From: a virus
Taxonomy: Duplodnaviria > Heunggongvirae > Uroviricota > Caudoviricetes
Direction: 5' to 3' (one strand)
IMG/VR virus record: IMGVR_UViG_2630968414_000007
Length of the DNA: 50,105 nt
Below, one piece after another: positions 36,001-42,000 of this stretch (position 1 is the first letter of the stretch; every line of letters starts with the position of its first letter). Position numbers: made by a program.

Positions 36001-39000
36001 CCGAGATAAGTGGCACAAAAAAACCCGCTTGTGGGCGGGTTTTGTTTGCTTTTGCCATCACGTACAAAATCGGCAAAATATCAGATTTGCATGAAATATA
36101 TGCCTTTCAATCTACTTTTGCAACACTTTGCTTTGAAAATGCCGCCTTTTGTTTTGAACGCGTTCTCATTACAAACAATAAAGCCTCACTATCCAGTCGG
36201 TGAAAAATGTGTTTCATTGCAACCCAGTGACGAGTAAATGTTTTGGACCAGTTTTTAGTTGTCACTCCCACCAGTAATGCCAGCTCCTTGTATTCATAAC
36301 CTTCCCCACCAAAAAGTTCTGCTTTTACTGCCTGCGCCGCCAGCCAGATTAATTTTTTCAGGCGTTCCTGCGTTTTCCCTGCAATTTTTCTGGTACCGGA
36401 TTGAGTATTAAATTCATTCCACGCCCACTGTGTTATCGCGATCTGATATTCCCAACAAATACTCCCGCTGTAACACCACAACAACCAGGCTTTATGATGT
36501 TCTTCAAGAGACAGAACAGCCCGCCGCCACGATGATGTCGAAAACTCAACCGGACTGACCAGAGGAATTGACGTCACCTTCGCCAGCGATTGCTTTCCCG
36601 GGATTGGTGGATTATCCCGCGTTATCATTTTTCCAGTCACTTCATCGCGGTACCGGATTTTTTTTCGCCTGTAACGCCCTGTATCGAACATGGCATTCTC
36701 CTGCCAGGCTTCAAGCTGACCTTTTGTTGCCCCACTCAAATCAGCGGTGGCGATAATGAGCTGCTCACGCACAAACTGTAAATAGTGGTTATTCATGCGC
36801 ACTCCAGTTCTGTGATTTTTATCCCCAGCCGCTCACCAGGAACGAGCTGACCGCGCACAATATTGATTTCATCAAACTGCTCGTCGTCTATGAGAAGTCC
36901 GGCATGCGTCAGCACATCCAGTGGTGCTTTCAGGATATTGTCCAGGTCACGACGGCGCTTATCCGGTGGCTCTGCAATAATCTTTATCACCAGCCTTCCG
37001 GACAGGTTTAATTTCAGCCGCTGCTGGCGAACAATAAGTGCCACATCCCGGCGATAACGCTCACCGGCTTTTGATACAAAATATGTGCTGCCACGACGTC
37101 GCCAGTAGGTGTTCACCGTCGGCGGGTAAGGCAAAACAAACTCTATACGCATCAGTAACCTCTTTTACCCGAGCACGCCGGTTGCAAAGGCGTGATCAAG
37201 AAAACGAAAAATTAAATCAACCTGGGAACCATGCTTTTCTTCGAACGCCAGCGGATCCGCATGAAGCTCGTTGTGATGCTCCCGACACAGCGGTAGCGTG
37301 AAAATATCGTGGGATTTTGTTCCCATTCCGCCCTGACCATGACCAATCAGATGATGAGGATCGTCCGCTGGCTTACCACAACACGCACACGGCTGTGTCT
37401 TTACCCAGCGTGTGTATTTCTCATTTACCCAGCGGCGACGTTTAGGTCGTTTCATGAAGGATTCCGGAGACTCCGGATCAACGGCAATGCTGACCACCGT
37501 CTTTTCCTGTGGTGGGTTCTGTTGCTGGTGGGTGTGAGGCGGTAGCGCAATATTTTTTGTGCGCTGCTTCAGTATGCTGGTGGCGGTCTGTTCTCCCGGT
37601 ATGATGTCACTCTCACGGTATACGGAGCGGATTTTTTCCGCACGCAACCCCAGCGAACGACGTAATACCGCTTCCGGTAGCGCGTCCGCCACCTGATTGC
37701 GGACCGCCCACCAGGATAATTCAGCCAGAGATAATTCACGCTCCTGTGCGCCATTCATTGCGTGACGGATGATGTCAATCATCCAGGCGGCCAGATTCTG
37801 TTGAGCAAGTTGATCCAGTGAATCAGATGTCTGCTCCCGCAGCTGGTTGTCGCAGTGCCAGCACAACACCATCGCGCCGGTACCGTAACGGTGAATGACG
37901 GTTTCGCTGTGATGATAATCACCGTGTAGCCACTGGCAGGATTTCACGTGACGTAATAACCAGTCAGACAGTGCACCAGCGCCACCCGCAGCACGGATCA
38001 CCCGCTCATCGCTGAAAAATGGCAGTAGTGATTTATCTTCCGCCAGCGGCTGGTGAACGGCAGGTACAACCCCGGACGGCAGAGCTCGCATGCTTTTTGG
38101 TTCCGGCTCCACCAGTATTCTGCCGTTATGGAATGCTGACATTGATTCACGGCCTGGCTTAACGATAACCAGACCGAGTTCCGGTACCAGAACAGGTCGA
38201 AGTAATACCCGCACATTACCTCCAGATCCGTTGCTGGAATGTGCGGGACGGACGCGGTGGCCGTTCGGAGTAAGGGAGCCTGACGGAGATTATCCAGTGA
38301 CGGTAGTCGAGGCTAAGGGCTTTTTTAACCTCGCATCCGCGCCTGCGGTAACACTGAATGAGCCATTCGGCCTGTTCTTCAGTGCATGGGGGATGCTGGT
38401 ACCAGTCAGATTTGAATGCGTAAAAACACCGTCCGCGCCTGCTGGCAAAGACGGCAGAATCATCAGAATTGTATAATTTGGTATCGTGCGCCATCGGTTG
38501 TCTCTGCTGGCGCAGCAGGTGCCAGTTGTTCAGGCTGGCGTGCGAATTGTAAACCAGAATGCCAGGAAAAAACAAAACCCGCCGAAGCGGGTTAAGTGCG
38601 GGTGCGTTGAGGATGCCTGATTCATCAGAGGTGGCGAGGGATTTCTCCCTCGCCGGGTCTCTTACTCCTCAGGTTCGTAAGCTGTGAAGACAGCGACCTC
38701 CGTCTGGCCGGTTCGGATTCGTACCTCGCAGAGGTCTTTCCTCGTTACCAGTGCCGTCACTATGACGGTAATACAGATGACGATCAGGGCGATTAACATC
38801 GCCTTTTGCTGCTTCATAGCCTGCTTCTCCTTGCCTTTCGGCGCGTAAGAGGCTAACCTACATGTGTCTAGCATGAAATTGGCCTCAGATTAATGTTAGG
38901 CGTCTTGCAGGACGCGTAATGTTAACTGGGGCTTTTCTCTGTCTGCCTTACGGTGGCATGCCCGAGGCAGACAGCCTCAAGCACCCGCAGCAATTCTACT

Positions 39001-42000
39001 TAACTCTCGCTTTACCGCAAACCGTTTTTACCCGATATGGGAATTCCCATATCGTAATGAATTCAGTTCCCTAGTCGATCCATCAAAAACACAACCAGGC
39101 AGTAAACGCCCACAACAGCAATAACAGCCAGCGCACCTTCCATTGCCAGTGAAATATCATCCGACATATTCCCTCCTTTGGTGTGAATCCCGGCGAACGT
39201 TTTTACCCCCACCGACAAATAACATATACTAAAAAATCAATAGCTATAGCAACGCCTGTAATTGCAAAGGCTTCAGGCCAGATCATTGGCGCACCTCCTG
39301 CGGCGGTTCTGGTAGCGGCATCCAGTCGGTTACATTGCGGCTCTGTGTTTCGAAAAATTCATCACCATTACGGACTACATCAAAAAACTCACCGTCTCGA
39401 TATTGCGCATAAAGAACGAATGCGCCATCACATAAAATAATTACGTGCTGACCATCATCCGGCATTCGCTCACTACAGCTTATCCAATCATCCAGAGTTA
39501 CCGGATAGTTGGTTGACGTTTCCGAGATTTCCCGAAAATTATTGGTTGACGAACCCTTTTTTTCCCGAAAGTTTCCAGCCTGAAGCATGGCGGCGCTGTC
39601 TGGCGGGGCAGCATATAGCGGCACGTATATTTCCGGTTCCTTATCAGCACCGGGTTGCTCTTCCAGTGAGAATGTCTTTCCGGTAAATCGATTCATATAA
39701 AGCACGGGCTCTGCTTCCAGCGAAGCCTGAGCAACAAGGGCCAGTGCTAAATCCAACTCAATTGCCTCGAGAGAATTTTTGAATGCTGTCTGTTTTACTG
39801 CAAATTTCATCGCCTTTACATTTTCACTAACATGACTGATTAACTGCTCTTTTGTAAAAGTGGTCATCTCATTCTCCTTTGATGCGAATGCCAGCGACAA
39901 TTGAAGCCTGATAGCTAATTCACTCACAGTACCGCCTCCTGAAAATTGCCCTGATAGAACGCCAGTACACGCAGCATAACTTCACTCTTCCGGCACTCGC
40001 CACAGATTATGTTCTGTTGTCTGTCGTAGCGGCGTATTTCTCCGTCTGGTAACTTTCGAATCAATGTCTGGTCGGTTGCTTTCTCCGCTGCCTTACGCCA
40101 TACGCGATACACCTGTTCTGATGTAAAAACACCGTATTTACCGGGCATGTATAAATCGCCACAAGCCAGTACATCCACAAGGCAACGTCTGACTGAATGC
40201 CAGCCTGCTCCCGTCGCTCTCTCCAGTTGTGATATCGTCATGCGTTCATTTTTGCGTACCAGCCCGATAATTCGGGCCTTCAGTTCTTCACGCTGTTCGT
40301 GTGTAAAAGGTTTCGCCATAAGCGCCTCCGGCTATCACTTTTCCGATACAACACGGCGGGAAGAATCAGTAATCTGTCGAACAATATCCCGGTGCTTGTT
40401 CAGCTCCCGCAGCGCGGCGCAGACTCGCTCCCACTTCTGAACATCACTTTTCGCCCTGCGCAGCGCCAGGTTTGCCCTGCGCAGGGACGGAAAAATCAGC
40501 TCATCTGCTTGCGTTTCGGTAAACGATGGCAACGGCTGCACAATGTCCGCCACAGTTTCTGTTTTAATTTCTTCCTGTGTTGCGGCTTCCCGGACTGGTA
40601 ACGCAGCACCTGCTGGCTGAGGAAAGGCCTTACCATCATTTTTCGTTACCGGCGCGGCTTTCGGATCTGCTGGTAAATTACCCCCCGACATGCAGTAACG
40701 AAATTTACCGTTCTGATTAACGCGTGCCAGCCGCCCCGTTGCGGTTACCACCGCCAGCGTGGAAGCAACCTTGCGAGTACTGACGCCGAACTTACCCGCC
40801 AGTTCCTCACACGTTTTAGCACCATCCTGACCGATAAACTCAACCATCATGTCTGCGGTAACTTTTGGAGCGACCTCTTCGGTTACCACATCCGGCGCTT
40901 CAGGTTGTAGTGCCTGCCCTTCGGTTACCCCGGCTTCACCTTCGACAGCCAGAAACCAGGTGTGACCCGTTTTATCAACAACGCCATTTTTTTGAGTTCC
41001 CACAGTTCGTTAAGAACTTCTTCACGGCTGATATCAAGCCGCGCCGCCAGTTCAACAGAATTGGCTTTTCCCATCGCTTTCAGTGCATGCAATACAGTTT
41101 CCATCGAAAATTTACCTCGTCAAAAATTCTCACATACCCTGACGTCCAACGTTTGACCGCCAGCTCTCCCAGTTAAAATTCACCCAACGACCACCATTCA
41201 TGGTCATACGGTCCATCACCCGATCTCCGAGGAGTGTGCTCATCGCTGCGTGATTCAGGTTCGTCAGCATTCCGACACTACACATCGAAGCCGTTCTGCG
41301 GTCGACTATCTGGTTCAGCGTGACCTGCTCGTTGCGCGTATCCCGCTGCATGCCAATTTCATCAAGGACCAGAAGGTCAACTCCACAAAGCTCCTGTAAA
41401 AATTTTTCCCCGGACTGGCCGTTGTCGTAGCCGTCATGCAACACGCTCATGACATCGGACACGGTGACGATAATCACGCTTCTCCCCTTCGCCATCAGCC
41501 GATTGCCAATCGCTGCTGCCAGGTGATTTTTACCGGTACCAGGTTTACCGCTGAACACGAAGTTTGTACATCCGGTCATCAATTCATCGGCAATGGATTT
41601 CGCCTGGCTCAGAGCATGGCGCTGACCGTCGTTCTGCACCCGGTAGTTCCCGAATGAGCACTTCCTGTGAAGCGGCTGGATGCCCGCACGGTTCAGGATT
41701 TTTTCAACCCGCACCTGATGATTCAGGCGGTTAATCTCCTCGCTGCGTTTTCGTCCTTCAGCAAGTTGCCATTCCCGCCACTCCTCCACCGTCCGGTACG
41801 GTGGAACCGCCCCCTGTGGTGCAAGTCTGCGAATACGTTCAAGAACCCCAACTGCCGCAATGTTTTTCATGACACGTCACCCCCTGAATCCCGGCGGTAT
41901 TTCAGTGTCCGGTTCAGAAATGTGATTCACGCAACGCTGCGCGGGCGAACGCCCCAGGCGGATAACCAGTTCATCCCATTTTTCCCGGAGTTTTGCCGGA

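Follow-up and report, generated by a model that had tools for sequence, protein, structure and literature searches.

A canonical hok/mok/sok module and an adjacent gene for a predicted small membrane peptide in a lambdoid prophage of Escherichia coli O157:H7

The hok/sok (parB) system of plasmid R1, described by the Gerdes laboratory, is the founding type I toxin-antitoxin system; its Sok is a short, unstable antisense RNA that targets the translation start of mok. Type I toxins are normally kept silent. A Hok-type toxin locus and a gene for a 34-amino-acid (34-aa) peptide upstream of it were analysed in the IMG/VR virus record IMGVR_UViG_2630968414_000007, a stretch of 50,105 nucleotides (nt) called the window here, which is a lambdoid prophage of E. 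coli O157:H7. The locus is likely to consist of two adjacent but separable units, a hok/mok/sok module and a small peptide gene, and this judgement applies jointly to a canonical hok/sok module and to an independent accessory, probably non-toxin, membrane peptide. The first unit is a type I toxin-antitoxin module in which hok, mok and sok are complete and canonical. Such textbook systems are already known, and this well-preserved copy adds nothing new. The peptide had been catalogued before (in RefSeq and as XECs145) but not characterised; its family, the extent of that family, the missing annotation of its 29-aa form and its adjacency to hok are new here.

The closest described relative of the module is hokW-sokW/mokW of the Stx2 prophage Sp5 (VT2-Sakai, 933W), to which the window aligns gap-free, with ~91% DNA identity, between the fold-back element and the hok promoter. 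Both modules lie in a lambdoid prophage and have the same in-frame Mok extension, the same Sok promoter hexamers, the same Sok start position and the same terminator hairpin. They differ at the C-terminus of Hok, which is the HokD-like FTAYEPEE in the window and VDYESEK in HokW, and in prophage position, the window locus lying in a nin-type region upstream of Q whereas the VT2-Sakai/933W locus lies near the right end of the phage record. Sp5 is also without the 34-aa peptide gene, and its hok promoter abuts another small open reading frame (ORF). With hok/sok of R1 the window appears to have in common the folded mRNA with 5'/3' pairing, the mok-dependent translation of hok and the antisense RNA with a single-stranded 5' tail and a terminator hairpin; it differs from R1 in that Mok is an in-frame extension of Hok and in its chromosomal prophage setting. 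Compared with the Rfam consensus, the window Sok carries a 16-nt sub-hairpin insertion. Another relative is hokD (relF) of the K-12 Qin prophage, and hokD is likewise the name given by RefSeq and the Prokaryotic Genome Annotation Pipeline (PGAP) to the window coding sequence (CDS). The downstream neighbours at related loci (rem, a hypothetical gene and ydfU/DUF968) we take to be those of K-12 Qin. In work of 1999 attributed to Pedersen and Gerdes, hokD of K-12 reportedly lacks the upstream mok, sok and leader region and is abutted by relBE, whereas every regulatory element is intact at the window locus.

For the peptide, the closest described entry is XECs145, whose C-terminal 34 residues are identical to it. 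XECs145 was called as 54 aa from an upstream non-ATG start (PMC5597208), whereas the start is placed here at the ATG at 39167 because of the ribosome-binding site in front of it and the conservation of the family. In the part of the supplementary files of PMC5597208 that was available, the word "hok" does not occur and the 29-aa members are not among the listed peptides. The short type I toxins of E. coli (ZorO, TisB, Ldr, ShoB, DinQ and Ibs) are of similar size (19-35 aa), have one hydrophobic helix and sit in short intergenic modules. Unlike them, the window peptide has no sequence similarity to these toxins, is acidic or neutral instead of basic and is well translated in growing cells; no RNA antitoxin was identified for it, and its 29-aa form has no long structured leader. 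The small regulatory inner-membrane proteins AcrZ, KdpF, MgrB and MgtS offer an analogy of working only: they are shorter than 50 aa, have a single transmembrane helix, are expressed during normal growth and bind larger membrane proteins, whereas the window peptide has no homology to them and no known partner, is carried by prophages and plasmids and has a very narrow host range.

The hok, mok and Sok elements

A Hok-type locus with an intact toxin and an overlapping upstream frame had been proposed for this DNA, and it is present (Table 1). The hok product matches Pfam HOK_GEF (PF01848; E = 9.7e-24, 83.2 bits, cut-off 22) and PHROG 251 (E = 2.8e-33), and it has the length of ~50 aa and the N-terminal transmembrane helix of the Hok/Gef family. 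The upstream frame, opened by an in-frame ATG at 38874, reproduces the geometry of the annotated mokW (1273..1485) and hokW (1273..1428) of VT2-Sakai, which end at one common stop codon; called 70-aa HOK_GEF products are also carried by related loci. The Rfam model RF01794, named "sok", gave a full-length match in this region with 116.9 bits against a gathering score of 59 (E = 4.6e-26). This match was rejected as Sok itself, as its strand is that of hok and its end coincides with the hok AUG. Because the 3' end of the model aligns to the hok AUG, the match was assigned to the hok mRNA leader. The mRNA is predicted to begin at G38986 and, when complete, to span 38572-38986 on the minus strand (415 nt). 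The predicted hok promoter is kept in VT2-Sakai, and its equivalent in phage Evi, TTGGCG-17-TAGAAT, passes the promoter scan; both the promoter and the start at 38986 are putative, having been read from the sequence. The minimum-free-energy fold of the 415-nt mRNA (38986-38572) closes the 5' end on the 3' end at -176.4 kcal/mol (z = -8.29), and the modelled pairing of GGGUGCUUGAGG with CCUCAACGCACCC is the long-range 5'/3' interaction that defines hok mRNAs.

A plus-strand Sok-like antisense RNA had also been expected, around 38820-38900, with TTGCCT-17-TAACCT as a weak candidate for its promoter. The candidate is the Sok promoter, and it is homologous to the experimentally mutated sokW promoter. 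In the study of Takada et al. 2021 (PMC8621323), the primers YO-421/422 for the promoter-less sokW alter exactly the TAACCT hexamer, and sokW was detected by Northern blotting with a probe that corresponds to window 38866-38895. As the window aligns gap-free to VT2-Sakai across the module, the annotated sokW (71 nt; L004 1477-1547) could be mapped to 38866-38936, where G38866 lies 7 nt downstream of the TAACCT -10 hexamer. The expected region therefore held the promoter and the first half of the RNA, whereas the RNA itself spans ~38866-38936. A published antisense start site exists as well: among the EDL933 entries listed in a Cappable-seq dataset (PMC10469882), a start at 1638863 (-) was found in 8 of 8 conditions, and this position, in a colinear copy that has 4 mismatches to the window over 901 nt, is the exact equivalent of window 38866. 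The Cappable-seq paper gave this start to gene "8340", and the Sok start is therefore mislabelled in that dataset. The predicted fold of Sok has a single-stranded 5' tail and a long terminator hairpin followed by CUUUUCUCU, with a CUUUU end (-34.5 kcal/mol, z = -4.66); the 5' tail is the complement of the mok AUG and of the mok ribosome-binding site.

The same listed entries contain hok-sense 5' ends. The strongest, at EDL933 1638854 (+), corresponds to window 38875 and was found in all 8 conditions; it precedes the mok ATG by 1 nt, with the Sok start only 9 nt away, and it is possibly a product of Sok-related processing or a capture artefact. Weaker hok-sense ends were listed at window 38893, 38921 and 39044 (EDL933 1638836, 1638808 and 1638685, all +).

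If the paradigms of R1 and Sp5 are carried over to the window, the stable, tightly folded hok mRNA (~38986 to 38572, minus strand) would be held translationally silent by the pairing of its 5' and 3' ends, and translation of Hok would depend on the upstream Mok frame. Sok would be made constitutively from TTGCCT-17-TAACCT, would pair across the mok translation start and would so block mok translation. Upon prophage induction, loss of Sok may allow Hok to enter the inner membrane and to add to killing or lysis, in analogy to hokW-sokW of prophage Sp5. Experimental demonstration of Hok toxicity and its neutralisation by Sok concerns the homologous hokW-sokW only (PMC8621323), and HokD is counted among the previously characterised toxic sequences in the available part of a recent Hok survey. 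According to the available part of a recent preprint, adenosine-to-inosine (A-to-I) editing of the hokC/D/E mRNAs by TadA recodes the C-terminal Tyr of Hok to Cys; Tyr47 of the window Hok is entered in Table 1.

The upstream peptide gene and its family

About 250 bp upstream of hok, the original prediction had named an unannotated 34-codon ORF with a strong AAGGAGG ribosome-binding site that encodes a single-helix membrane peptide. The gene is real and as described, its stop lying 246 nt upstream of the hok ATG, but "unannotated" was wrong: it is WP_001278450.1, a "hypothetical protein" of RefSeq/PGAP in every E. coli record listed, and XECs145 of PMC5597208. The peptide has a grand average of hydropathy (GRAVY) of 1.33 and one hydrophobic 18-residue segment with a mean Kyte-Doolittle value of 2.89, and it is presumably located in the membrane. 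The net charge is -3 in the 34-aa form and 0 in the 29-aa form, and there is no basic C-terminal tail. Searches of Pfam, NCBIfam and PHROGs with this peptide and with a neighbouring 27-aa peptide gave no significant family; the best matches of the small peptides, to SecE (E = 0.069) and phrog_10847 (E = 0.12), were rejected as hydrophobic noise. No mention of the accession WP_001278450 was found in the papers searched, and literature searches found no toxicity or overexpression experiment on the 34-aa peptide.

A published translation signal for the ORF exists. Hücker et al. 2017 (PMC5597208) reported XECs145 as a translated novel gene of O157:H7 Sakai, one of 465 novel ORFs, predicted it to be an inner-membrane protein restricted to Escherichia and placed it in the machine-learning class "real". 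In lysogeny broth (LB), its RNA and footprint values were 79.1 and 346.1 reads per kilobase per million mapped reads (RPKM), with a ribosome coverage value of 4.35 and a coverage of 0.99. The corresponding values were 121.3, 150.1, 1.14 and 0.84 in the brain heart infusion (BHI) control, and 73.3, 1.1, 0.01 and 0.37 under cold/osmotic stress. By the tables of that paper, XECs145 ranks with the better-translated of the novel ORFs when cells are growing; the LB values (4.35 for ribosome coverage, 346 for footprint RPKM) show that its translation is not off in normal growth. The 34-aa ORF probably rides on transcripts that come from DUF551 and the 27-aa ORF.

The substitution pattern points to a protein-coding gene. 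The peptide ORF is intact in 13 distinct homologues from phages, chromosomes and plasmids, with frame, start codon and ribosome-binding site kept. Among these homologues the variable sites number 19/9/25 at the three codon positions, and the minimum substitutions 24/11/38 (chi-square p = 0.0006). The ratio of nonsynonymous to synonymous polymorphism (pN/pS) is 0.35 in the frame, compared with 0.68 and 1.37 in the other two frames; the pairwise ratio of nonsynonymous to synonymous substitution rates (dN/dS) is 0.08-0.43, with pS up to ~0.8. Frame, ribosome-binding site and start codon are conserved across ~50% synonymous divergence, and by these sequence comparisons the ORF appears to be under purifying selection. 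A reverse-strand ORF across the 29-aa ORF, open in most 29-aa sequences and annotated in phage HannyBb, was rejected because that frame has 2 stops in the window and because the substitution periodicity fits the forward frame.

The members of the family are 29-34 aa long and have in common the core ALAxxAVxxxYCLxVxLM(D/E)RL, with ten invariant columns (L7, A12, L13, A14, A17, V18, Y22, C23, L24 and L28 of alignment A3). The 34-aa form was found, at 90% identity or more, in 674 of 5,426 complete E. coli genomes, with 1-5 copies each. Versions of 29 aa with 44-50% identity were found by tblastn in the phages Evi, Tritos, mEp460_ev081 and HannyBb, where they share the strand of hok and precede it by ~210 nt. 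Among the 5,426 genomes, 1,974 have the 29-aa form MLVLKCALAIAAVMAIYCLAVVLMDRLSD, which begins with GTG behind AGGAGG; no annotated feature lies under its ORF in any RefSeq record listed. Together, family members stand upstream of prophage hokD/hokW-type loci in ~2,300-2,600 of these genomes. The third version, MLVLKGTLAIAAVMTIYCLIVVLMERFSD, starts with ATG and is carried by invasion plasmids of Shigella (124 plasmid records by tblastn) and by some invasion plasmids of E. coli; no annotated feature lies under the tblastn match in the plasmid records listed. A profile search of 1.84 billion representative proteins added P0074 and P0075, more divergent members that both precede a 70-aa Mok/Hok gene by 155 nt, and gave no relatives beyond the peptide family.

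The taxonomic range is Escherichia/Shigella only, as judged from one genome per species for 185,579 species and from the 1.84 billion proteins; the source names of the family proteins are "hypothetical" or "(putative) membrane protein", from E. coli, E. albertii and Enterobacteriaceae. A scan of genome contigs with the back-translated N-terminus of the 34-aa form gave no match, and a scan with the C-terminal core pattern gave one Shigella chromosome, one "Collinsella" assembly and 5 chance matches. The 3.3-kb contig labelled Collinsella sp. (L012, JAIHTM010000277.1) carries at 2915-3055 the 29-aa peptide with in-frame flanks exactly as in the E. coli plasmid pMS20655A, and is, almost certainly, a fragment of an E. 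coli prophage that was mis-binned. When deposited phage records were searched at the DNA level with the ORF of the 34-aa form, no copy of it came up, and the sole match was to the flank with the 27-aa ORF. The 29-aa forms of phages and chromosomes and those of the invasion plasmid pINV are preceded by a promoter-like TTGAAx-17-CATATT, a short 5' untranslated region and an exposed AGGAGG, even where other upstream sequence differs. This promoter-like element is not found in the 34-aa form of the window, which has a different N-terminus (MSDDI) and a different upstream sequence. Frameshifted and helix-proline variants occur in the databases, and one locus (L023) has an internal deletion.

The linkage between the peptide ORF and hok is tight but not obligate in either direction. 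In the 34-aa, 29-aa and divergent members alike, the ORF shares its strand with hok and is found 150-250 nt upstream of it. Of the 676 records with the 34-aa form, 661 have the ORF contiguous with hok; for the 29-aa form, contiguity was seen in 1,661 genomes, as against 1,668 with a full-length match to the 29-aa form alone. The genes further upstream vary freely (DUF551, QueH, DUF4145, DUF5677, HigB with a helix-turn-helix (HTH) gene, ORF6N). Conversely, only 4 of 110 hok-bearing phage records have the peptide ORF, and hokW of VT2-Sakai is without it. On pWR100 of Shigella flexneri an intact 29-aa member with an ATG start and AGGAGG (L010 2001-2090) lies 294 nt upstream of icsP and is followed by a degenerate remnant of the first ~80 nt of a hok leader (L010 ~2100-2200), with no hok. 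One S. flexneri chromosome and E. coli LR882057 also have an intact peptide ORF without any hok. In literature searches, nothing was found on the peptide family or on its adjacency to hok, and genes neighbouring hok do not appear in the available part of the recent Hok survey.

Readings of the peptide

Most likely, the peptide is an accessory membrane peptide of the moron type with constitutive expression. It would be the product of an independent gene, with a strong ribosome-binding site of its own, that shares a recombination module with hok; the 34-aa, single-pass inner-membrane peptide may act through its transmembrane helix, either by self-association or by binding to a larger membrane protein. 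A role as small membrane modulator, one of the two offered by the original prediction, is possible. This accessory role is favoured because the evidence argues against a type I toxin and against a cis-acting or accidental ORF. The other role offered was that of a second type I toxin, which would have its own antisense or divergent RNA antitoxin in a tandem toxin locus. The suggestion is understandable for a small, very hydrophobic, single-helix peptide with a strong ribosome-binding site that adjoins a type I module. A plus-strand TTGCCA-16-CATATT (39143-39170) even overlaps the start codon, and an RNA made from it would be antisense to the ribosome-binding site in a Sok-like geometry. Under stress, moreover, translation collapses with the mRNA still present (ribosome coverage value from 4.35 down to 0.01; footprint counts 316 vs 1), and the peptide is therefore under post-transcriptional control. 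Such promoter-like sites, however, occur at chance level (2 sites vs 1.1 expected), this one falls in the part of the ORF that is not common to the 29-aa forms, and no start is found at the corresponding positions among the EDL933 entries listed in PMC10469882. Efficient translation in growing lysogens, so unlike the usual silence of type I toxins, the exposed ribosome-binding site behind a short 5' untranslated region in the 29-aa form, a charge of -3 or 0 with no basic tail, the lack of a conserved antisense promoter or partner element in the loci compared, and the survival of the ORF alone on pINV and on a Shigella chromosome argue against a classical type I toxin. The peptide is probably not a second toxin, and a tandem toxin locus is quite unlikely. 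Selection on the amino-acid sequence argues in turn against a purely cis-acting or an accidental ORF. A non-functional chance or decaying frame, seen through pervasive translation, would suit the range limited to Escherichia/Shigella, the lack of a Pfam, NCBIfam or PHROGs family match, and the frameshifted, proline-bearing and internally deleted copies; it is extremely improbable given the three-base periodicity of substitutions, the low pN/pS in this frame only, the frame, ribosome-binding site and start codon kept across ~50% synonymous divergence, and the high ribosome coverage.

The position of the ORF raises the question of how it relates to hok. In 29-aa-form loci its stop lies ~10 nt from the hok -35 hexamer with no terminator between, at the 34-aa-form locus a palindrome is inserted exactly at the junction of ORF and hok promoter, and the hok-sense 5' end at window 39044, which depends on the condition, is upstream of the canonical start. 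From these observations it could be argued that the ORF acts in cis, with transcription or translation toward the hok promoter giving 5'-extended hok transcripts or promoter occlusion and the peptide itself being incidental. That the amino-acid sequence is conserved (pN/pS 0.35, position 2 least variable, many synonymous changes), that the ORF persists without hok and that every locus keeps its own hok promoter make such a role very unlikely. The absence of a terminator between ORF and hok in 29-aa-form loci would equally suit a peptide that is a partner of Hok in four-component loci (peptide, mok, hok, sok). Such a partner would act at the membrane, weakening or strengthening the insertion of Hok or its pore formation, or giving immunity. 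Both products are single-helix inner-membrane peptides, and their adjacency is constant in spacing and strand while genes further upstream vary, with contiguity in nearly all of the records and genomes counted above (661/676; 1,661 vs 1,668). Against this partnership, hokW-sokW functions as a toxin-antitoxin pair and assists lysis both in a cloned Sp5 fragment and in a prophage without the ORF, 106 of 110 hok-bearing phage records are without the ORF, and the ORF stays intact after hok loss; adjacency in mosaic lambdoid genomes can mean a shared recombination module and not a shared function. We consider a Hok partner unlikely. A broader proposal is that the peptide is an unrecognised functional part of prophage hok loci, either a Hok modulator/immunity factor or a second toxic peptide, in a four-part module of ~40-50% of E. 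coli genomes that has left a domesticated orphan upstream of icsP on the Shigella virulence plasmid; taken as a whole, it is doubtful.

Several points weigh against the picture of a canonical module beside an accessory membrane peptide. The very tight linkage, over ~3,000 loci, could mean a functional connection. The words accessory and non-toxic were chosen from translation level and architecture, and some copies are decaying, as their frameshifts and helix prolines indicate. The promoter scan found no promoter for the 34-aa form in the ~330 nt upstream, and no Cappable-seq start lies upstream of the 34-aa ORF among the EDL933 entries listed in PMC10469882, a difficulty for its transcription in a repressed prophage. 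On the side of the module, the same listed entries have no start at the predicted hok mRNA 5' end, 38986, and the strong hok-sense 5' end at 38875 has no recognisable promoter in the sequence. The Sok start site was determined in a paralogue, with its 4 mismatches in 901 nt, and not in this exact copy; the genomes used for ribosome profiling and Cappable-seq hold 2-3 near-identical copies, so that reads are unassignable to this one.

With these comparisons, an anonymous ribosome-profiling ORF, 1 of 465, is now placed in a conserved Escherichia/Shigella family that is found almost always at the upstream edge of prophage hok loci. If the linkage to hok is functional, a protein component would be added to a 40-year-old RNA-only regulatory paradigm, and the finding would bear on the role of prophage Hok in lysis; unless this proves to be the case, the finding on the peptide is modest. 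Without such a functional link, the family would still offer a clear and testable case of a small, translated membrane protein of prophages, including the orphan copy by Shigella icsP. The comparisons also bring out a gap in annotation, covering the 29-aa ORF as well as the 27-aa ORF that lies downstream of DUF551.

Neighbouring elements and prophage setting

The coordinates of all features are collected in Table 1. An 851-nt query (38500-39350) matched many E. coli O157:H7 chromosomes with 100% identity. In NZ_AP018488.1, the order on the minus strand is replication genes, DUF1627, DUF977, DUF551, the 34-aa hypothetical gene, hokD, a hypothetical gene, DUF968, RusA, antiterminator Q and lysis genes; the locus is thus in a nin-type region, with the replication genes on one side and the antiterminator Q gene on the other. 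The far side of the same prophage carries dicB, ydfC and a RelB/RelE pair, and the DicF small RNA (sRNA) is matched by Rfam in the window. With the RelB/RelE pair and a nearby YdaT-family "toxin" gene, at least two toxin-antitoxin systems are present in the prophage besides hok/sok.

Table 1. Positions of the elements of the hok locus and of other features, numbered along the window
Feature	Positions	Strand	Basis or remark
hok CDS, HokD-type, 51 aa (MKQQKAMLIALIVICITVIVTALVTRKDLCEVRIRTGQTEVAVFTAYEPEE)	38662-38817	-	ORF list, Pfam, PHROG, RefSeq hokD WP_001303917.1
mok-like frame, in-frame upstream ATG at 38874, 70-aa N-terminally extended Hok	38662-38874	-	ORF list
Hok Tyr47 codon, UAC then G (UACG context)	38677-38679	-	near Hok C-terminus
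hok mRNA 5' leader (5' translational-activator element, Sok target, mok translation start)	38812-38986	-	Rfam RF01794
Predicted hok promoter	38993-39020	-	TTGCGG (39020-39015), 16-nt spacer, TAGAAT (38998-38993), 6 nt before G38986; read from sequence
Fold-back-inhibition element (CCUCAACGCACCC) pairing with mRNA 5' end (GGGUGCUUGAGG)	38600-38612	-	minimum-free-energy fold
Intrinsic terminator of hok mRNA (AACCCGCTTCGGCGGGTT then T run)	38566-38593	-	terminator scan (38593-38576)
Sok promoter: TTGCCT (38831-38836), 17-nt spacer, TAACCT (38854-38859)	38831-38859	+	sequence; identical hexamers in hokW/sokW
Sok antisense RNA, ~71 nt	38866-38936	+	gap-free mapping of annotated sokW misc_RNA (L004 1477-1547)
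51-aa ORF downstream of Sok start	38919-39074	+	apparently hypothetical gene "8340" of older EDL933 annotation
34-aa single-pass membrane peptide gene (MSDDISLAMEGALAVIAVVGVYCLVVFLMDRLGN), WP_001278450.1 = XECs145	39063-39167	-	ORF list, ribosome profiling, family alignment, hydropathy
Ribosome-binding site AAGGAGG of 34-aa ORF	39172-39178	-	4-nt spacer to ATG, read from sequence
27-aa hydrophobic ORF (MIWPEAFAITGVAIAIDFLVYVICRWG)	39203-39286	-	ATG overlaps DUF551 TGA stop (ATGA), GGAGG upstream; no RefSeq annotation here
Perfect 22-bp palindrome CGATATGGGAATTCCCATATCG, EcoRI site at centre	39033-39054	.	between 34-aa ORF and hok promoter
11-nt direct repeat CGTTTTTACCC flanking 34-aa ORF	39023-39033 and 39199-39209		~0.1 expected by chance in 900 nt
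RelB/RelE-family type II toxin-antitoxin pair	~44077-44548 (L001 14578-15049)	+	prophage immunity region
ALIL frameshift pseudoknot of IS3-family element (IS1203)	3777-3893		Rfam
STnc100 sRNA	34701-34873		Rfam
Three tRNA genes upstream of lysis region	35650-35896		Rfam
DicF sRNA	45832-45883		Rfam

Three smaller elements lie around the 34-aa gene. Peptides related to the product of the 27-aa ORF (MxWPEAF...VYxICxW) are encoded at the 3' ends of DUF551/EaA genes in 92 phage records, including 933W and VT2-Sakai. Because its homologue in SMS-3-5 differs by several synonymous changes, the comparison suggests that the 27-aa ORF is a second real small membrane-peptide gene. The palindrome CGATATGGGAATTCCCATATCG is unique in the window, where none is expected by chance, and among the loci compared it is found at the 34-aa-form locus only, being absent from the 29-aa loci (alignment A2). 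It is not a canonical terminator, as no T tract follows it; the condition-dependent hok-sense 5' end at 39044 coincides with its centre. The direct repeat CGTTTTTACCC was not reported by the repeat scan of the window. The ideas that it marks an insertion or serves as target of an RNA were dropped, and it may be a recombination junction of the 34-aa-form cassette.

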